A stretch of 64,000 nucleotides of DNA, taken from NCBI RefSeq assembly GCF_003991155.1, contig NZ_CP031293.1, one strand, 5' to 3'. How positions within the stretch are numbered: position 1 is the first letter of the stretch; every line of letters starts with the position of its first letter. Source of the stretch: Escherichia coli. Its GTDB lineage: Bacteria > Pseudomonadota > Gammaproteobacteria > Enterobacterales > Enterobacteriaceae. Below are positions 4,373 to 19,039 of this stretch, piece by piece. Made by a program: the position numbers and the translations under genes. Below the pieces are notes generated by a model. That model searched no databases, was not told where the DNA came from, and saw only the letters and a list, made by a program, of their open reading frames with translations.

Positions 4373-5437
4373 TTAGCGGTGATACTGTTCAGACAAGCGA
4401 TGCACTGCCTCCACAAACACGCCAGCATGTTCTGGCGGCACATCCTGATGAATGCCGTGACCAAGGTTAAAGACATGACCTTCGCCGTGACCGAAACCGG
4501 CAAGTATAGTCGCAACTTCTTCTTCAATGCGGGCAGGCGGTGCGTACAGCATCGACGGATCCATATTACCCTGCAACGCGACTTTATTGCCCACGCGGCG
4601 GCGCGCATCGGCGATGTCCGTTGTCCAGTCGAGGCCCAGCGCATCGCAACCGGTTTCTGCCATCGCTTCCAGCCACTGTCCGCCACCTTTGGTAAACAGC
4701 GTGACCGGTACGCGGCGACCGTCGTTTTCACGCAGTAAACCATCAACAATTTTATGCATGTAATAGAGCGAGAACTGTTGATAATCGCGCCCGGTAAGCA
4801 CGCCGCCCCAGGTGTCGAAAATCATCACTGCCTGAGCACCGGCTTTAATCTGCGCATTCAGATACAAAGTGACGCTTTTCGCCAGTTTATCGAGTAGCGC
4901 GTGCAGCGCCTGCGGATCGGCATACATCATTTTTTTGATCACGGTGAAGGCTTTGCTGCTGCCGCCTTCCACCATGTAGGTCGCCAGCGTCCACGGGCTG
5001 CCAGAAAAACCAATCAGCGGCACTTCGCCTTTCAGTTCGCGACGAATGGTACGCACCGCGTTCATCACGTAACCCAGCTCATCTTCCGGGTCCGGAATTG
5101 GCAGTTTATCGACGTCGGCTTTGCAGGTGACTGGCGAGGTAAAACGCGGACCTTCTCCGGCTTCAAAATAGAGCCCTAACCCCATCGCGTCCGGCACGGT
5201 GAGGATATCGGAAAAGAGGATCGCCGCATCCAGCGGGTAGCGACGCAGCGGTTGCAAAGTCACTTCGCACGCCAGCTCGGCGTTTTTGCACAGCGACATA
5301 AAATCGCCCGCCTGGGCGCGCGTGGCTTTATATTCCGGTAGATAGCGACCCGCCTGGCGCATCATCCATACTGGAGTGACATCAACGGGCTGGCGCAGCA
5401 GCGCCCGCAGATAACGATCGTTTTTAAGTTCGGTCAT
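4373..5437 (-). CDS. hemE: Uroporphyrinogen decarboxylase
   Basis: 354-aa [39 protein letters not shown] (URO-D signature). Confidence 0.96.
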
Positions 5438-11288: not shown

Positions 11289-12418
11289 AAACCTTCAGCG
11301 ATCGCTGGCGACAACTGGACTGGGACGACATCCGCCTGCGTATCAACGGCAAAACGGCTGCTGACGTAGAGCGGGCGCTAAATGCCTCGCAACTCACCCG
11401 CGACGACATGATGGCATTGCTATCACCCGCCGCCAGTGGCTATCTGGAACCACTGGCCCAGCGAGCGCAGCGTCTGACCCGTCAGCGATTTGGCAACACA
11501 GTTAGTTTCTACGTCCCGCTTTATCTTTCCAATCTTTGCGCTAACGACTGCACGTACTGCGGATTTTCCATGAGCAATCGCATCAAGCGCAAAACACTGG
11601 ATGAAGCGGATATTGCCAGGGAAAGCGCCGCTATACGGGAGATGGGCTTTGAACATCTGCTTTTAGTCACTGGTGAACATCAGGCGAAAGTGGGGATGGA
11701 TTACTTTCGTCGTCATCTCCCTGCCCTGCGTGAACAGTTCTCTTCACTACAGATGGAAGTGCAACCGCTGGCGGAGGCGGAATATGCCGAGCTAAAACAG
11801 CTGGGTCTCGATGGCGTGATGGTTTATCAGGAGACATATCACGAGGCGACTTATGCCCGCCATCATCTGAAAGGCAAAAAACAGGACTTCTTCTGGCGGC
11901 TGGAAACGCCGGATCGGCTGGGCCGTGCGGGGATTGATAAGATAGGCCTCGGCGCGCTAATTGGCCTTTCCGACAGCTGGCGCGTTGACTGCTATATGGT
12001 TGCAGAACATTTGCTATGGCTGCAACAGCATTACTGGCAAAGCCGCTACTCTGTCTCCTTCCCACGCCTGCGTCCATGTACTGGCGGCATTGAGCCTGCG
12101 TCGATTATGGATGAACGCCAGTTAGTGCAAACCATCTGCGCCTTCCGGCTGCTTGCACCGGAGATTGAACTGTCACTCTCCACGCGGGAATCACCGTGGT
12201 TTCGCGATCGCGTGATTCCGCTGGCAATTAATAACGTCAGCGCTTTTTCGAAAACGCAGCCAGGTGGCTATGCCGACAATCACCCCGAGCTGGAACAGTT
12301 CTCACCACACGACGATCGCAGGCCGGAAGCGGTTGCTGCCGCGTTAACCGCTCAGGGTTTGCAGCCGGTATGGAAAGACTGGGACAGCTATCTGGGACGC
12401 GCCTCGCAAAGGCCATGA
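11285..12418 (+). CDS. thiH: 2-iminoacetate synthase ThiH (radical SAM tyrosine lyase)
   Basis: 377-aa ORF with the radical-SAM motif [10 protein letters not shown]; overlaps the thiG stop (ATGA). Confidence 0.96.
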
Positions 12419-12530
12419 GACAGAATGTAAGAACGTAAATTTATTCCGAGCCGCTACGGAAGATGAAAAACGCAAGGTTGTTGAAAGCGTTGTGTTTTTT
12501 TATGGTAGTGCCGTCAGCAGGAATGTTGTC

Positions 12531-12563
12531 CAGGGCGAAAAGCTTCTTCCTCGTTTCGCCCTG
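12531..12563 (+). terminator. Stem-loop (10-bp stem) downstream of thiH; candidate terminator or island-boundary structure
   Basis: CAGGGCGAAA-13 nt-TTTCGCCCTG perfect inverted repeat followed by CCTTTCTT. Confidence 0.35.
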
Positions 12564-12735
12564 CCTTTCTTAAAATAACGTCTCAGTACGCTATTTCATG
12601 ATTGCCCGCAAAAATATTCATTAATATTTCTATTGTTTTAACAAAGAAGGCACAAGGCTTTAATTGCAAAGCAAGATCGCCGTCAAAACAAGAGTGTGCA
12701 ATAACCGGTTATAATAATTCCACCCTCACCAAAAT

Positions 12736-13386
12736 ATGGTCCAGAACATCATGTCAGCTTACCTAAAAAAAGCGTTATCGATTCATAGTGATGAATTTCG
12801 CCCATACGGAAACGTAATTTCTGCAATAAATGTAGATTCATTGCTTAAATACCTTAAAGAGGAAATTTCTGTACCTGAGGATCAGGTGGCATATGTCAGA
12901 AGCGATGAGCGCTTAAAGCAATACCCCGCCGTGAGCGACATTCAGCGCCAAATCTACGGTGGAATGCCCGTTCAGGCTGGGTACGTTTGTGGGGTAAATA
13001 CCACCCAGGATGGCTTTGAATATCACCAGGGAAGTGAAGTCATTATCGCCGCCAGCGATTTTTTCCTGTTTTTAGGTAAACGAGAGTTGATGCAGGGTGA
13101 CACGTTTAATGGTGAACGTGCAGAGCCGTTTTTCATTCCGGCAAAATCGGTGATTGAACTTTATAGCACAACGCTACATTACTGCCCTATGAGTATCAAT
13201 GCACAACCTTTTAGTGCAGCGATTATTCTTCTTGATGGAACTAATGAAGATATTGATGGCAAGAATAAACCAACAATATTAAGCAAGCGAAATACCTGGT
13301 TTATCGCCCATGAAAGTTTCACTGAGCATCCTTGCCCATTATTAAAAGGGCCGCATCTTTGCGTGAATGATATTATTCATGGGTGA
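12736..13386 (+). CDS. Cupin-like protein of unknown function (ureidoglycolate-lyase-like N-terminal motif; possibly DUF4867-type)
   Basis: 216-aa ORF with no K-12 counterpart at this locus; AT-rich codon usage; motif EFRPYGNVI resembles the AllA-family N-terminus; alternative start at MSAYLKK (12751). Confidence 0.6.
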   Translation: MVQNIMSAYLKKALSIHSDEFRPYGNVISAINVDSLLKYLKEEISVPEDQVAYVRSDERLKQYPAVSDIQRQIYGGMPVQAGYVCGVNTTQDGFEYHQGSEVIIAASDFFLFLGKRELMQGDTFNGERAEPFFIPAKSVIELYSTTLHYCPMSINAQPFSAAIILLDGTNEDIDGKNKPTILSKRNTWFIAHESFTEHPCPLLKGPHLCVNDIIHG

Positions 13387-13390
13387 AAAT

Positions 13391-13410
13391 GGCGAAGATT
13401 TCTCTTCGCC
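13391..13410. terminator. Shared hairpin between convergent island genes
   Basis: GGCGAAGA-TTTC-TCTTCGCC perfect stem-loop in the 30-bp gap between the cupin-like gene stop (13386) and the hydrolase-like gene stop (13417). Confidence 0.5.
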
Positions 13411-13416
13411 TGTTCT

Positions 13417-16071
13417 TTACCCGGCAATTACCGCCACGCTGTCTTTTGTTCGCACGCGTGGTGGCATGGTCAGACCGCAGCGATCCCACTCATTCCCCTG
13501 CCATGCACTCGCAAAATAATAATGATTCGCTGCCGATGGGTAGACCACGACCGCCAGTTCATTACGCTTTTTTAGTAAAGACTGTGGCAAGGTGAAACGA
13601 TATTCCGGCCAGCCCTTTTCGGCAATTAACGTATCGTTAAGCCAGATAGCAACGCTTCCCTGCACTTGCGGTAAATAAAGCTCAATATCGTCGGTAATCG
13701 TCTCCAGCGCAAAGCGTAACTGATAATGTCCCGGACCACACCACGTCTCCATCCCCTGCTGCTCCCACCCTTTTGTTACCTCAACGGGTCGGGAAACGTT
13801 ATCAACCAGCAGTTGCCAGTGCTTATCCAGCACCACCTCGTGGCGACTTTCCACTACCTGCAATGAAAAGCAACGGGCCTGCCAGGGCTCGATTTGTAGC
13901 GGATAACTTCCCGTGAGATGCTCTTCCAGCACTGAAACCTCTCCCGTTGCAAGATGCCACTCCGACAACTGCCCACTGAGGCCCGGAAAATGTAGCCAGC
14001 CGTAGAGCGGGGTATCTCCGTCGTTAAATACGCTGACGTAACGCGATGTTTCATCCTGGGTAATTCGCGTCCAGACGGCAGTTTTCCGGGAGGGATAGTC
14101 AACAAAGGGGTGATCGTTTTTCAGCGTGTCGGCTAACGTGCTGCACTGCGGTTGCGCCTCAATCAGTTTTTGCAGCCTTTCGGTGAGAGAACGATCTTCA
14201 CCTTTTTCCTCGCTATATGCCGCAAGCTCGCCGGCGATCAGAAGCTGGCCACCAGCGGCGACAAAGTGCTCCAGTTGGCTCAGCGTGGCGGCTGATTTCA
14301 CCACCTTAACGTCCGCTAACAGAAGCGCAGGGAAATTCATGCCGTTAATGCGCGTTCCATCAGCCTGGAGCAAATTCTCTTCATCAATAAAGAAATATTC
14401 AAATCCCTGAGCGCTGAGTTGTTTTGCCCAATATTCGCCTGACTGCCCTTCGTTGCCATCCACGCCACAGTGCCAGAAAGTCCGTTTGGGATAGAGTACG
14501 CCAACATCAACGTACGGCTCTCCCTGCTCAAGAAATTCGGCAAGGCGACCAGATTCCTGAGCAAACCCAGCGTGGAAGGCGTACCAGGGCTGGAAGTTAA
14601 CGCCCGGCGCAAAATCAAAACGCGGGTTACTTAATACGTCGTCATTTGCCTCGCCATCCGTCAGCCAGAACGCGTGCATCAAAAATTGCCGCGCACCGAG
14701 GAGGTGATGGCGCAATGCCTGCAACCGGATGTCATGCAGTGAAATTTCCCACTGCCCGGCAGCAAAATGTGTGCATGGCTTCACCCGCGCATAATATTGC
14801 TCAACAATGCACCCTTTACGCCCATGAGCGCGCGCCACAGAGTCGCCAACCTTCGCCGCCATCTGCGGCTCGCTATTTCGCGAATCGACAGCCGTAATAT
14901 CCCGCCAGCCATCGAGAGCAAAGTAATCCATAGCAAAATTACACCGGTTATCTTCGGTGATGATTTTACTGGCGAAATTCCAGCTACTAACGTGACCTAA
15001 TACTTCATGACCACTTAGCTGTATTCCCCGCTGGTGCGCCCATTCTGACAACGTACCAAAAAAGGCCTGCATCGCCTGGCTGGAATAACAGGAAAGCAGC
15101 TCACAGCGCCGACGTGCGGTACGACTGCCAATGTCCATAACTAACGACATCAGGTTTTCTGCCAGGCAGTAAGGTGCCTGTTGCAATGCATCAACAAACC
15201 TTTTTTCATACATTAAGGAGGATTTGACCGCGCCAGTATGTTCATTCCATTGCCAGAAACAGGCGTGTGGCTGGTCGAAAAAGAGATACGCCACCGTCTT
15301 ACCAAAATGATCGCCAAAAGCGCGGGCGTAAGGTTCATAGCCGACACGAATAAAATTTTCTGCCGCTTCGGGCATCAGGTAATTAATCATCCGTGAGGTC
15401 AAGCAACGCGCCGCGGCAAAGAGCGTCACTACCGTTTCCGCACCCCAGGGCAGGTCGCTTCCCGTAAAGGTGACCTCAAATTCCTCTGTGGTTGCTTTGG
15501 TGATGCGGGCCAATGAAGAAACATCAACAATTTCATCTGCATTGCACTCCCCTGATGAAGAGGTGGCATACGCTGCGACAATTTCCCATTCATCCCACGC
15601 CGGTTTACCGCCAGCAAAAATCCACTCCATTCCACACTGCTGTAGCGCCTGCGCATCCGCAGAGCGGATCCCGGAAAGGTGACATGTCAGTACATCTGCA
15701 GACCGGCTGGACTGGCTCCAGAAAAGATGGCGCTCACGCAGCTCATCTCTCCCTTCAACGGTCCTTCCCCCGGCGTGCCCGGAAAGCCAGTTGTAATCAT
15801 CGTAGATGCCCATCATCAGCCCAATATTGGCAGCTTTATCAGCCGTGTAGCGACAGGCTGCCAGCCACTCCTCACTGAGATAACTCTCCAGCGGAAGACT
15901 CAGACGTGCGGCTATCTGAAATGAACCATACCCTCCCGCCTGCAGTTGCCTCAGTTGGCTGTCGATCTGCTTTTTGTCCGGAATGGTATGCCAGAACCAG
16001 TAGGTTGCAGGCAGGTGCCATACATCAGGATTTTTAAAGTTTTGGCGTGCCTGTGCTAACGAATCATTCAT
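13417..16071 (-). CDS. Large cytoplasmic hydrolase-like protein (putative glycoside hydrolase, family unassigned)
   Basis: Track ORF 13417..16104; start chosen at MNDSLAQARQ (ATG at 16071) because of the AGGGGGAAAGCC RBS 6 nt upstream; 884 aa; no signal peptide; C-terminal region looks beta-sandwich/carbohydrate-binding-like; no K-12 homolog recalled. Confidence 0.75.
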   Translation of the reverse strand: MNDSLAQARQNFKNPDVWHLPATYWFWHTIPDKKQIDSQLRQLQAGGYGSFQIAARLSLPLESYLSEEWLAACRYTADKAANIGLMMGIYDDYNWLSGHAGGRTVEGRDELRERHLFWSQSSRSADVLTCHLSGIRSADAQALQQCGMEWIFAGGKPAWDEWEIVAAYATSSSGECNADEIVDVSSLARITKATTEEFEVTFTGSDLPWGAETVVTLFAAARCLTSRMINYLMPEAAENFIRVGYEPYARAFGDHFGKTVAYLFFDQPHACFWQWNEHTGAVKSSLMYEKRFVDALQQAPYCLAENLMSLVMDIGSRTARRRCELLSCYSSQAMQAFFGTLSEWAHQRGIQLSGHEVLGHVSSWNFASKIITEDNRCNFAMDYFALDGWRDITAVDSRNSEPQMAAKVGDSVARAHGRKGCIVEQYYARVKPCTHFAAGQWEISLHDIRLQALRHHLLGARQFLMHAFWLTDGEANDDVLSNPRFDFAPGVNFQPWYAFHAGFAQESGRLAEFLEQGEPYVDVGVLYPKRTFWHCGVDGNEGQSGEYWAKQLSAQGFEYFFIDEENLLQADGTRINGMNFPALLLADVKVVKSAATLSQLEHFVAAGGQLLIAGELAAYSEEKGEDRSLTERLQKLIEAQPQCSTLADTLKNDHPFVDYPSRKTAVWTRITQDETSRYVSVFNDGDTPLYGWLHFPGLSGQLSEWHLATGEVSVLEEHLTGSYPLQIEPWQARCFSLQVVESRHEVVLDKHWQLLVDNVSRPVEVTKGWEQQGMETWCGPGHYQLRFALETITDDIELYLPQVQGSVAIWLNDTLIAEKGWPEYRFTLPQSLLKKRNELAVVVYPSAANHYYFASAWQGNEWDRCGLTMPPRVRTKDSVAVIAG

Positions 16072-17563
16072 GGCTTTCCCCCTTCTTAATCGGCGGAACA
16101 TCACAATGACAAATGTATGTCAAAATGGCATACAGCGCCGCGCCCACCAGCATCGCCACCACTACGCCAATATTTGCTGTCGCAAACACGCTGGTTTTGG
16201 TTTCTGCCGTCAGTAAGAAGCCGACCAGGTGAGCAATCCACGGATCGCCTGAGGTGATGGTTCCCATGCCGATAACCGATGCAACAAACAGCGATAATAA
16301 TGCCGTCCAGCGACCGTTACGCCCGCCAAGCCCCGCGGGCTGCGCCATATCAGTGTTCCAGTGCAAGCGTTTTTGCCGGGCAAAGTCGACAAGCTGGATT
16401 GCGCCCATCGATCCCAATACGACGGATACCGTTGCCAGAAAAGACTGAAAGGTTGCGAGGAACGAGTCAGAAACAAACAATAAGTAGAAGGCACCGAATG
16501 CGATAATGACCGCATTGATAGCAGTGGTGGTTGAACGACTGGCTGGAACGCCCATTGCCAGCAATGCGAGGCCTGAGCTGTAAACACCTGTAATGGCTGC
16601 CGCCAGCAGGGAGATGATGATCACGATTGAAAACGGCACATAGAACCAAAACGGCAGGAACGAGGTTAAGGCCGCAATCGGTTCGGACGCTGCTGCTCCG
16701 CTCAGTTCCGGGTTACTGTCGGCCAGCAGGGCACCTAAAATCAGCAGGATGGAAACCGGAAGCGAAATCCCAAGCGACGTCCAGAAAATCACTTTCCCGG
16801 CAGCGGTTTTGCGCGGCAGGTAACGGGCGAAATCACCGCCATAGTTGAGAAAGCCCAGCCCAACCATCGTCATTGCCATCACCATGCCGCCGATAAACGT
16901 TAAAAATCCGGCATCGGGAGCAGCACCCGCCTGCGACCAGTGAATATGTGGCAGGATCAGGATAATAAAGATGATGCTCATTCCGCCCGTTAACCATGCA
17001 ATATACTTTTCTACCTTCATGATGAGCTGGTGGCCGTAGATGGCAACGGACATAGTCAATACTAAGGTCACCACGAACCAGCCCAACAGGCACCCTAAGG
17101 TAGGGTGACCGTTTTCTGCTGCAAATACGGTTGGCCATAACCGGGCAAAGAGGGCGGCGCCAGTGGTCGAGGACAACGTAATAATGGTGATTTTCCAGCC
17201 CATATTGGAAATATAGGCAAATAAAGTGGGGATCTTATTCCCATGATAACCAAAGGCAAATCGGGTCTGCGTTAAGGTAGGCAGCCCGGTGCGTGGCCCA
17301 CCAACGGCCAGAACCCCCACCAGCGTGCTGGATAAAAAATAGCCCACGACACCGGCAACAATCGCCTGCCAGAGGCTTAACCCCAGTGAGTAAACATAAA
17401 TCCCATAGGTAATACCGAGGATGGATACATTCCATGAAAACCAGATCGGGAAAAGTCCGGCAGGCGAACCATAACGTTCGTTATCACTAACCGGGTTTAC
17501 CCCATTGGTTTCCACCTTCATCGTACCTGAAACATCAGATGGGTTCTGGGCTTGGCTCGTCAT
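16064..17563 (-). CDS. NCS1-family (nucleobase/nucleoside/vitamin:cation symporter) permease
   Basis: Start set at MTSQAQNPSD after a GAGAGGAAAT RBS within the longer track ORF; about 499 aa, highly hydrophobic with multiple predicted TM helices; resembles purine-cytosine/allantoin/hydantoin permeases. Confidence 0.8.
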   Translation of the reverse strand: MTSQAQNPSDVSGTMKVETNGVNPVSDNERYGSPAGLFPIWFSWNVSILGITYGIYVYSLGLSLWQAIVAGVVGYFLSSTLVGVLAVGGPRTGLPTLTQTRFAFGYHGNKIPTLFAYISNMGWKITIITLSSTTGAALFARLWPTVFAAENGHPTLGCLLGWFVVTLVLTMSVAIYGHQLIMKVEKYIAWLTGGMSIIFIILILPHIHWSQAGAAPDAGFLTFIGGMVMAMTMVGLGFLNYGGDFARYLPRKTAAGKVIFWTSLGISLPVSILLILGALLADSNPELSGAAASEPIAALTSFLPFWFYVPFSIVIIISLLAAAITGVYSSGLALLAMGVPASRSTTTAINAVIIAFGAFYLLFVSDSFLATFQSFLATVSVVLGSMGAIQLVDFARQKRLHWNTDMAQPAGLGGRNGRWTALLSLFVASVIGMGTITSGDPWIAHLVGFLLTAETKTSVFATANIGVVVAMLVGAALYAILTYICHCDVPPIKKGESHE

Positions 17564-17564
17564 T

Positions 17565-18782
17565 TTATTTCCTCTCATATTGAGCAAGACGTGATAGTAC
17601 GGCTTCATACTCAGGCATGTTCGATGCGCCTTCCCGCTCGACCGCCAGAGAAGCAAACGCAGAGGCAAATTTTGCTGCACTGAGCAACGGCTGGCCCTGC
17701 GCAATCGCCGCAGCAAACGCACCGTTAAACGCATCCCCCGCACCGGTGGTGTCAATACTTACTGCTTTTAACGCTGGAATATGGGTAAATTGTTCACCGT
17801 CATAAATCAGCGCCCCTTGAGAACCCATCGTAATAATGATGTTTTTTGCCCCCAGGGATTTTATGGTTTGCGCCGCTTCTTTCGCACTCTCGATATCATT
17901 AATCTCGACACCGGACATCAGCGACGCTTCTGTTTCATTCGGTGTCAGATAATCAACATATTGCAGGCATTCTTTTGCCTGGTCAGAATAAGGGGCTGGG
18001 TTAAGGATAGTTTTCACGCCCGACCGATGTGCCATATTTAGTGCCAGCGTGGTTGCTTCAAAGTTATTTTCCAACTGTGTCAAAAATATTTTGGCGTCCG
18101 TCAACTCACCCGCAATACTGGCAACTTCCGCTTCAGTGATATATTGATTGGCGCCAGAATAAATCGCGATCTTGTTTTCACCAGCAGGCTCCGAAACATA
18201 TATTATGGCGCTTCCTGTTTTATGCTCTTCGTCCTGGTAGAGGGTAAAGCTGCGGATATCGGATGAAGAGAGATGATCATGCGCCATCTGGCCGAAATGG
18301 TCGTTGCCAACTTTGCCGACGAAGTGTACCTGGACGGGACATTTGCTGGCTGCCATCGCCTGGTTTGCGCCCTTGCCGCCAGGTCCAATGATGGTATTGC
18401 TGGCAAGAATTGATTCGCCGCTTTTAGGGAAGCGATCAACTTTGGCAATAATATCGACATTAAAAGATCCTAATATACAAACTTTGCTTATCATTATTTT
18501 CCCTTTTTTGTTTGTCATCGAGTTTTTTCGCCAGTTGACCTGATTGAGGAACTTTTCAATAGAGGTACCAACGTTATTAACGGGCTGAGAATGGAAAATC
18601 CGACGCAATATTATTGCTCCGCCGTGACAACGCTCAACACCCCCTTGCTCCGCTAATAAATTTAAATCATTACGGATCGTTTCTTTACTGACAGAGAATA
18701 AGATGGCGAGTTGATTAACCGTAGCCCGCTCATGTTTATTCAAATATGCCAATATTTGACGTTGTCTTTCTTTCCCAAACAT
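17565..18782 (-). CDS. DeoR-type HTH domain fused to a ribokinase/PfkB-family carbohydrate kinase domain
   Basis: 405-aa ORF; N-terminal about 60 aa ERQRQILAYLNKHERATVNQLAILFSVSKETIRNDLNLLAEQGGVERCHGGAI is a DeoR-family HTH; C-terminal about 305 aa carries PfkB motifs GPGGKGANQA and DTTGAGDAFNGAF; GAGGTG RBS; stop 1 nt before the permease ATG. Confidence 0.8.
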   Translation of the reverse strand: MFGKERQRQILAYLNKHERATVNQLAILFSVSKETIRNDLNLLAEQGGVERCHGGAIILRRIFHSQPVNNVGTSIEKFLNQVNWRKNSMTNKKGKIMISKVCILGSFNVDIIAKVDRFPKSGESILASNTIIGPGGKGANQAMAASKCPVQVHFVGKVGNDHFGQMAHDHLSSSDIRSFTLYQDEEHKTGSAIIYVSEPAGENKIAIYSGANQYITEAEVASIAGELTDAKIFLTQLENNFEATTLALNMAHRSGVKTILNPAPYSDQAKECLQYVDYLTPNETEASLMSGVEINDIESAKEAAQTIKSLGAKNIIITMGSQGALIYDGEQFTHIPALKAVSIDTTGAGDAFNGAFAAAIAQGQPLLSAAKFASAFASLAVEREGASNMPEYEAVLSRLAQYERK

Positions 18783-18987
18783 GATTTCACCTCACGTAAC
18801 ATTTATATCTTTTGTAATTTTCTGATTCCATGAATCCTTTCACACTACCATCACGAAAACAAAAACAAACGGGAATTTTTGGAGGAAAGGTTTTTTTATT
18901 CAATGGGATAGTGAGAGGGGAATGTTGTTTTGAAAAAACACTCCCGAAAAATGCGTGGGAAAGCGCTTTCAATCGTAAACGGAATGC

Positions 18988-19019
18988 AAAAAAAAGCCAG
19001 TCAGTGTGACCTGACTGGC
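18988..19019 (-). terminator. rpoC rho-independent terminator
   Basis: GCCAGTCAG-GTCACA-CTGACTGGC hairpin followed by a T8 run on the minus strand, 20 nt downstream of the rpoC stop. Confidence 0.85.
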
Positions 19020-19039
19020 TTATTTCTTAAGAAGAGCGA

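Follow-up and report, generated by a model that had tools for sequence, protein, structure and literature searches.

In Escherichia coli, the rbsDACBKR operon serves the ABC transporter-mediated import of free ribose; it includes no hydrolase and is governed by a separate LacI-type repressor. Nicotinate degradation is encoded by nic clusters such as that of Pseudomonas putida, which specify NicAB and NicC. In Bacteroidetes, ribose utilization systems (RUS) combine hydrolases that vary greatly between loci with ribokinases and a permease (Glowacki et al., bioRxiv 10.1101/574913), and their partner families include ADP-ribosylglycohydrolase, dihydrodipicolinate synthase (DHDPS), LacI, major facilitator superfamily (MFS) and unassigned glycoside hydrolase (GH) proteins (bioRxiv 10.1101/574913). 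Here we describe a four-gene locus in the gap between thiH and rpoC of an E. coli strain, found in a 64,000-nucleotide stretch of contig NZ_CP031293.1 (assembly GCF_003991155.1), which was analysed whole and is called the window below. The locus encodes a DeoR-type helix-turn-helix (HTH) fused to a ribokinase, an NCS1-family permease, an 884-aa protein of glycoside hydrolase fold and a cupin of the DUF4867 family. We consider it probable, though well short of certain, that these proteins constitute a catabolic or scavenging module for the uptake and hydrolysis of a small ribose-containing glycoside and the phosphorylation of its ribose. As a type such a module is ordinary: with an importer, a hydrolase, a kinase and a regulator, it is a variant of a familiar catabolic module.

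By analogy, RUS are the closest functional analogue of this module, and RUS partner families recur here, either beside the hydrolase or beside the fusion kinase. The two differ in that RUS are SusC/SusD outer-membrane systems with a surface RusGH and a periplasmic RusNH, whereas the module in the window combines an NCS1 importer and an apparently cytoplasmic hydrolase with a regulator fused to the kinase. No SusC/SusD genes are present in the segment, and it is not itself a RUS. RusGH (BT2807) was considered as a homologue of the hydrolase and rejected, being a 539-aa surface lipoprotein and a different protein. The locus shares with the rbs operon a ribokinase with the same active-site motifs and, as it seems, a converter of ring form or anomer (RbsD there, DUF4867 or a FucU-like protein here), but differs in that a glycoside would be imported and cleaved and that a DeoR HTH is fused to the kinase. 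Among glycosidases, the GH106 enzymes BT0986 of Bacteroides thetaiotaomicron (PDB 5mqm) and RHA-P of Novosphingobium (PDB 6q2f) have a fold like that of the hydrolase at an identity of only 13-17%; the window protein is ~150-250 residues shorter, appears cytoplasmic and is partnered by an NCS1 carrier and a ribokinase rather than by polysaccharide-utilisation genes. The cupin belongs to the same Pfam family and has the same 2His-2Glu site as SftX/SqvD of the sulfoquinovose pathways (PMC11968277; PDB 9gyy), although the module contains no sulfoglycolysis genes. A likeness to nic clusters arises because a rhizobial homologue of the hydrolase lies inside an operon with NicA-like and NicB-like subunits and a NicC orthologue, but the E. 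coli module has no nic genes and its link to pyridines runs through hydrolase homology only.

The product of the first operon gene is a ribokinase by both of the measures applied. Residues ~98-400 score 313.5 bits against the TIGR02152 ribokinase equivalog model, above the cut-off of 299.65, and align to E. coli RbsK (PDB 1gqt) with an E-value of 5e-53. The ribose- and ATP-site motifs of RbsK (N14/D16, GGKGANQ, E143 and GAGD with D255 in the reference) are kept as GSFNVD at 105, GGKGANQ at 135, QLEN at 236 and GAGDAF at 347. Residues 1 to ~75 are a DeoR-type HTH matching the N-termini of GlpR, AgaR and SrlR, and orthologues bear both PF08220 and PF00294, so that the DeoR-HTH::PfkB fusion proposed by an earlier, sequence-only reading of the window stands. 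The C-terminal sugar-phosphate sensor domain of DeoR proteins (PF00455) is not in the fusion, which thus belongs to the DeoR family by its HTH only; a PfkB ribokinase takes the place of that domain. A canonical DeoR with PF00455, for comparison, is held by a Dickeya locus (L098). Fusions of this kind are widespread in Enterobacterales, where paralogues are the first gene of an operon for an ABC transporter and an ADP-ribosylglycohydrolase in Salmonella bongori (L097) and of operons for DHDPS-family, DUF386 and MFS proteins in Dickeya (L098) and Rahnella (L099). A single kind of regulator-kinase may serve several riboside-type modules.

The three minus-strand genes are, from the arrangement of their junctions, a tightly coupled operon. 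A 1-nt gap separates the fusion kinase and permease genes, the permease stop overlaps the hydrolase start by 8 nt (ATGAATGA), and a Shine-Dalgarno sequence precedes each of the three genes. The first junction is as previously described, whereas the second had been reported as a 6-nt junction and is corrected here. The earlier assignment of the permease to NCS1 is borne out by a match to TIGR00800 (E 2e-25; 89 bits, under the subfamily cut-off of 353), by PF02133 on its Salmonella orthologue and by 11 hydrophobic segments in its hydropathy profile, against ~12 in the family.

The 884-aa protein, previously called only hydrolase-like, proved to have a glycoside hydrolase fold. Its AlphaFold2 (AF2) model, built on an alignment of 103 sequences, reached a pLDDT of 92.9 and a pTM of 0.85, and its best Foldseek matches were the two solved GH106 alpha-L-rhamnosidases (6q2f, E 7e-40; 5mqm, E 8e-35; 13-14% identity), followed by GH42 enzymes, including an alpha-L-arabinopyranosidase, and the GH140 apiosidase. 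In sequence, the Pfam GH106 model (PF17132) was not significantly matched (E 0.026, 13.4 bits, residues 19-120 only), although a minority of homologues bear a precomputed PF17132 match, and neither an NCBIfam family nor a match in a PDB sequence search was found; the protein was placed only through structure prediction and profile comparison. A profile of the family detects GH106 structures only at the first barrel strands and at the C-terminal domains, which are alpha/beta and GH2-like sugar-binding. Because the fold and domain architecture match GH106 while the Pfam model fails, the modelled protein is best described as a glycoside hydrolase-fold enzyme outside the current GH106 sequence family. 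No hydrophobic N-terminus or signal peptide was found on it, and it is therefore taken as cytoplasmic. The family to which it belongs is sizeable: an exhaustive search returned 91 representative clusters at E <= 1e-30, of which about the first 45 were strong and near full length, together with far more numerous distant relatives of 25-30% identity. Across 64 homologues from all clades, 71 columns are conserved in at least 97%, including eleven acidic residues and seven arginines; the conserved residues (among them D91, E113, D266, H355, E356, D374, D396, D410, E424, D486 and E564) are common to the enteric/actinobacterial and rhizobial groups. In the AlphaFold database, every relative bears either the label uncharacterised or a generic one. 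One paper on host specificity in Salmonella refers to a ribokinase but does not deal with this locus.

The partnerships seen in the window recur in other phyla. We scanned hydrolase neighbourhoods in one genome per species, giving 80 loci whose open reading frames (ORFs) were clustered and probed. One set comprises 38 loci, drawn from Enterobacterales, Succinivibrionaceae, Actinomycetota, Bacillota and one Chloroflexi metagenome-assembled genome (MAG); 33 of them have an NCS1 gene as the direct upstream neighbour of the hydrolase gene, and the two genes often overlap. LacI regulators occur in 22-23 of the 38 and PfkB kinases in 17-18, the ranges reflecting cluster membership versus probe matches in the case of the kinase, and a FucU/RbsD-type mutarotase gene stands beside the hydrolase gene in 11. 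For the kinases of Bifidobacterium, Streptomyces and Sulfobacillus the best NCBIfam model is ribokinase, but they score under its cut-off. In Succinatimonas the unit comprises permease and hydrolase only, and other neighbours look unrelated; near group-A loci, a recurrent 241-aa ORF belongs to no NCBIfam family. These cross-phylum neighbourhoods strengthen the view, already put forward from the sequence, that an importer and an intracellular hydrolase act on a small glycoside or riboside together with a kinase that carries a built-in regulator.

Two further contexts bear on the substrate. In five Bacillota loci the hydrolase gene is followed by genes for an isochorismatase-family amidase and then an ADP-ribosylglycohydrolase, with a downstream PfkB kinase in three and an NCS1 gene in four of the five. 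Identification of the isochorismatase-family neighbour as a nicotinamidase or a maleamate amidohydrolase was attempted and not adopted, the PDB matches being weak (E 1e-4 to 1e-10). About 40 Alphaproteobacteria have the hydrolase, 30-37% identical to the window protein, in a different operon, and in ~30 Rhizobiales loci it comes directly after nicA/nicB-like genes. The alphaproteobacterial order runs from a NicA-like 2Fe-2S subunit and a NicB-like Mo and cytochrome c subunit through the hydrolase to a GH63-like hydrolase, a PotD-like ABC importer, an isochorismatase-family amidase and a MarR regulator. A divergent rhizobial neighbour matches 6-hydroxynicotinate 3-monooxygenase (PDB 5eow, E 1e-179). 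This arrangement raises the possibility that glycosylated nicotinate is catabolised by rhizobia. An example is found on plasmid pRLN4 of Rhizobium leguminosarum (L062, 2831-18255).

The cupin gene has two possible starts, at 12736 (216 aa) or 12751 (211 aa), and what had been called a cupin-like gene encodes a DUF4867 protein. It matches Pfam PF16161 (E 7e-54) and PDB 9gyy, SqvD (E 7.5e-34), with the metal-ligand columns conserved; the 2His-2Glu site defined on 9gyy (PMC11968277) is intact as E-x-H-x3-E (E-Y-H-x-x-S-E, residues 90-96) plus H143 (TTLH). A mutarotase or ring-isomerase role has been proposed for DUF4867, whose members lie near sugar kinases and isomerases, but assays on sulfoquinovose and sulfofructose were negative and the family has no demonstrated activity (PMC11968277). 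In Serratia fonticola (L102), a single operon at an unrelated chromosomal site comprises, in this order and all in one direction, the fusion kinase, NCS1, hydrolase and DUF4867 genes, whose products have amino-acid identities to the window proteins of 64%, 76%, 55% and 46%, respectively. Because it is co-operonic there, the cupin can be assigned to the module despite its opposite orientation in E. coli. Moreover, DUF4867 stands at the operon position of the actinobacterial FucU/RbsD-type protein, and an analogous role is therefore suggested, in which it would ensure that the freed sugar reaches the ribokinase in the appropriate ring form or anomer.

Upstream of the fusion gene, the block TGTGAAAGGATTCATGGAATC, which contains the palindrome GATTC-ATG-GAATC and a CRP-like half-site, is common to the promoters of E. 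coli, E. whittamii, Salmonella and an enteric metagenome contig (L009). The palindrome occurs once in the window, and the region upstream of the cupin gene does not contain it. We noted a candidate -10 by eye; in a promoter so predicted, the CRP-like half-site would have its centre near -41.5, but a sigma-70 consensus scan of the minus strand of 18783-18990 called no promoter. A TTCC(C)GTTT box is present in six of seven fusion-gene promoters from four operon types, in five of the seven at ~85-100 nt upstream of the start codon, the sole copy in Serratia being ~206 nt upstream. Dickeya and Rahnella promoters carry the TTCCGTTT box and S. bongori only a variant. None of 2000 shuffles reached six of seven promoters, for a pattern chosen post hoc from the same seven sequences. 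From these boxes we infer that the HTH of the fusion autoregulates its own operon, with the kinase domain as sensor. Since the same regulator serves different hydrolases, the probable signal is their common product, ribose, or the adenylate state.

Taken as a pathway, the module would work inwards and in the catabolic direction. The NCS1 permease would import a riboside, and the cytoplasmic GH106-like glycosidase would cleave its glycosidic bond to give free ribose and a small, probably nitrogen-heterocyclic aglycone. The DUF4867 cupin may then help bring this ribose into whichever ring form or anomer the kinase uses, as a FucU/RbsD-type mutarotase at the same operon position may do in actinobacteria, and the ribokinase domain would yield ribose 5-phosphate for the pentose-phosphate pathway. 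The DeoR-type HTH would bind TTCC(C)GTTT-type boxes in its own promoter while the enzyme domain doubles as a sensor of ribose and/or ATP, so that the product would induce the operon.

Our best single guess at the substrate is a pyridine (vitamin B3) riboside, for example nicotinamide or nicotinate riboside, a tentative choice that is more probably wrong than right. It is suggested by the link to nic operons and by the isochorismatase-family amidases and ADP-ribosylglycohydrolases of Bacillota, and also by the carrier types and by the reactivity of N-glycosyl pyridinium compounds. The NCS1 and PotD families include carriers of cationic vitamins and amines, and N-glycosyl pyridinium compounds are good glycosidase substrates. 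A broader and, taken as a whole, doubtful reading would join these elements: the hydrolases would be a new GH family, distantly sister to GH106, of cytoplasmic ribosidases for pyridinium ribosides, DUF4867 would be an isomerase of ribose ring form or anomer and the fusion, common to several riboside modules, would sense the product, with ribose passing to ribokinase in the gut bacteria Escherichia, Salmonella, Bifidobacterium and Succinatimonas and nicotinate to the nic pathway in Rhizobiales.

The genomic setting of the module is as follows (Table 1). Between the stop codons of thiH (12418, plus strand) and rpoC (19040, minus strand) lie four long ORFs and no other substantial ones, and an identical annotated genome, that of E. 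coli 2016C-3878, also calls four genes in the segment. BLAST homology to K-12 and EC958 stops at 12575/12576, 157 nt beyond the end of thiH and a short way past the terminator hairpin of the thi operon, and restarts at 19037, 3 nt from the rpoC stop; these two positions define the strain-specific segment, which is 6460 bp long as compared with 1001 bp in K-12 and 80 bp in EC958. In K-12-type genomes yjaZ is the sole gene in the gap, and the EC958 gap has no gene. ORFs, annotation and BLAST thus agree with the sequence-only reading that four genes without a K-12 counterpart occupy a gap that in K-12 holds only yjaZ. The GC-rich hairpin between the convergent cupin and hydrolase genes is likely a bidirectional terminator. 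The rpoC terminator hairpin of the strains that bear the segment differs from that of K-12 and EC958 and is common to E. whittamii and L009; as it lies inside the segment, the end of the essential rpoBC operon lies in variable DNA. GC content dips to 0.39-0.47 at the segment ends (positions 12250-13500 and 17750-19000), which take in the cupin gene, the control region and, within the fusion gene, the 5' part that encodes the HTH, while the hydrolase and permease genes, at ~0.50-0.55, are near flank values.

Table 1. Features of the rpoC-thiH gap, in window coordinates
Feature	Position	Strand	Basis and remarks
thiCEFSGH terminator hairpin CAGGGCGAAA...TTTCGCCCTG	12531-12563	+	Inverted repeat; last feature common to K-12 before the left boundary
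Strain-specific segment, replacing the K-12 yjaZ segment	12577-19036		BLAST boundaries; 6460 bp
DUF4867 cupin, 211 aa	12751-13386	+	2016C-3878 annotation; Pfam PF16161
GC-rich hairpin GGCGAAGATTTCTCTTCGCC between convergent cupin and hydrolase genes	13391-13410		Terminator scan
884-aa glycoside hydrolase-fold protein, annotated hypothetical protein (WP_001000014)	13417-16071	-	2016C-3878 annotation; AF2 model
NCS1-family permease, 499 aa, annotated purine-cytosine permease family protein	16064-17563	-	TIGR00800
DeoR-HTH::ribokinase fusion, 405 aa, annotated rbsK 'ribokinase', first operon gene	17565-18782	-	TIGR02152
Operon control region	18783-18990	-	Sequence inspection, conservation
Shine-Dalgarno GAGGTG	18793-18788	-	Sequence
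Candidate -10 TATAAA	18807-18802	-	By eye
Conserved block TGTGAAAGGATTCATGGAATC with palindrome GATTC-ATG-GAATC and CRP-like half-site	18844-18824	-	Sequence, conservation
TTCCGTTT boxes	18984-18977 and 18875-18867	-	Sequence
rpoC terminator hairpin AAGCCAGTCAG...CTGACTGGCTT	18994-19021	-	Terminator scan and inverted repeat; 11-bp stem, then T-run

An Rfam scan of the segment at a permissive E-value found no thiamine pyrophosphate (TPP) or other riboswitch. A match to the Thr operon leader at 18940-19028 (plus strand; 25.7 bits against a gathering score of 55) overlaps the rpoC terminator hairpin and was judged a chance match. At the gathering threshold, eight related loci gave only two matches, both to group II introns and both in one Bacillota MAG (L035, 5135-5237 and 14460-14693); a homologous module is present there, and the introns were judged unrelated.

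Among 5426 complete E. coli genomes, 49 carry the segment, always whole, chromosomal and at least 99.9% identical, and the comparison with K-12 and a pangenome panel that the sequence-only reading had proposed thereby places it in the accessory genome. Its carriers include IAI39 and CE10. The IAI39 permease gene is split into two ORFs by a 1-bp difference on inspection (L101, 3788-5287), and, among the carriers listed, five genomes (IAI39, CE10, AR_0013, N32 and another) show a 1-bp length difference with extra or split permease annotations. This lineage probably has an inactive module, whereas the permease gene is intact in, for example, 2016C-3878 and MRY15-117. The gap itself has at least four states in E. 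coli, holding yjaZ, no gene (EC958), the riboside-type module or a phosphotransferase system (PTS)/GH4 module, the last represented by strain F637 with PTS-IIABC, a 6-phospho-beta-glucosidase (a pseudogene with an internal stop), GntR and SIS genes. In the metagenome contig L009 the three-gene operon lies between rpoC and thiH side by side with the PTS/GH4 module. The rpoC-thiH gap is thus a multi-state cargo site in E. coli without mobility genes.

Outside E. coli, E. whittamii, Escherichia sp. MOD1-EC7003 and Salmonella enterica each have all four genes at this position, the S. enterica hydrolase being 89% identical; Superficieibacter electus has the three-gene operon beside thiH, also at this site. 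In S. enterica (L004-L008, ~4706-5289) the stretch from the rpoC stop to the operon promoter is longer by ~320 bases, and within it an opposite-strand ORF of 150-173 aa without a Pfam match is called in some of the contigs. Nucleotide identity to the two other Escherichia species is 90-95% for the island genes and 92-95% for thiG/thiH; relative to Salmonella it is 85-90% for the island genes and only 78-81% for thiG/thiH. Because identities track those of the flanking thi genes within Escherichia and mobility features are absent, these comparisons suggest that an old, syntenic locus underwent differential loss, from most E. coli lineages, and that it is not a recently acquired island. A contribution of recombination through the conserved flanks is conceivable.

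Several observations weigh against a ribose-containing substrate, or against parts of the scheme built on it. The nearest solved folds are alpha-L-rhamnosidases and not ribosidases, the central catalytic region of the hydrolase does not align in sequence with GH106, so that its catalytic residues do not map onto that family, and the usual enzymes of N-riboside cleavage are nucleoside hydrolases or phosphorylases rather than TIM-barrel glycosidases. A literature search found no paper on the hydrolase family and no assayed member. The rhizobial loci have no adjacent ribokinase and contain a second, GH63-like hydrolase, so the substrate may differ there. The operator box is a post hoc pattern drawn from only seven promoters, and the permease frameshift in IAI39 and CE10 implies that the module is not selected everywhere. 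It is unlikely, but conceivable, that the substrate is instead a non-ribose glycoside of a small heterocycle (an L-rhamnoside, an L-arabinoside or another 6-deoxy or pentose glycoside) and that the kinase-like domain is mainly a sensor or phosphorylates another sugar. The order of fold matches, from GH106 through the GH42 arabinopyranosidase to the GH140 apiosidase, would fit this, as would the actinobacterial mutarotase-like neighbour, which scores 83-97 bits as an L-fucose mutarotase against 31 bits as a ribose pyranase, and the fusions that head DHDPS/DUF386/MFS operons, which do not look riboside-specific. Yet the kinase scores above the ribokinase equivalog threshold and keeps the ribose-contacting motifs of RbsK, the kinases of Bifidobacterium, Streptomyces and Sulfobacillus also fit the ribokinase model best, rhamnose, fucose or arabinose catabolic genes are adjacent in none of the 80 loci, and the resemblance to GH106 amounts to 13-17% identity with the Pfam model unmatched. 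We therefore prefer a ribose-containing glycoside.

The position of the locus raises two other explanations. Salvage of a thiamine precursor (hydroxymethylpyrimidine (HMP) or a thiazole-riboside-like compound) tied to thiCEFSGH, which the sequence-only reading had mentioned as pure speculation, is highly improbable. The module does adjoin thiH in Escherichia, Salmonella and Superficieibacter, the permease weakly matches CytX, a predicted HMP transporter (TIGR02358, E 1.5e-10, 41 bits against a cut-off of 310), and the PfkB superfamily includes HMP kinases, to which matches are weak. But the segment has no riboswitch, the kinase is a ribokinase and not of ThiD type, the rpoC-thiH gap also hosts the unrelated yjaZ or PTS/GH4 cargo, and the module occupies an unrelated site in Serratia and non-thi contexts in Bifidobacterium, Streptomyces, Sulfobacillus and Rhizobiales. 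Presence in <1% of complete E. coli genomes, the lower GC at both segment ends and the placing of the cupin on the strand opposite the operon could alternatively speak for a recent horizontal genomic island, a chance assemblage of genes in which the cupin is unrelated to the operon. We hold this to be quite unlikely. Neither the ORF list nor the 2016C-3878 annotation contains an integrase or transposase in the segment, as had been noted before, and we found neither a tRNA gene in it nor a direct repeat at its boundaries; it thus has none of the marks of a mobile genomic island (integrase or transposase, tRNA, att-type border repeats). Several genera have the same site filled, the Escherichia copies have diverged in step with the thi genes beside them, the same gene partnerships are met in different phyla and the cupin is co-operonic in Serratia. 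Of the 'accessory island' described earlier, it is therefore the first word that holds, and the second appears to give way to an old syntenic locus.

Despite the familiar layout of the module as a whole, several of its parts are poorly understood: a multi-phylum glycosidase family with hundreds of members in our searches, the orphan DUF4867 cupin and a regulator in which an active-looking ribokinase would serve as the sensor. If the reading of DUF4867 as a ribose isomerase were true, it would give this orphan family its first function. If the pyridine-riboside idea were true, the locus would represent a new way for bacteria of the gut and the rhizosphere to consume ribosides of vitamin B3, and would bear on the availability of NAD precursors to hosts and plants.

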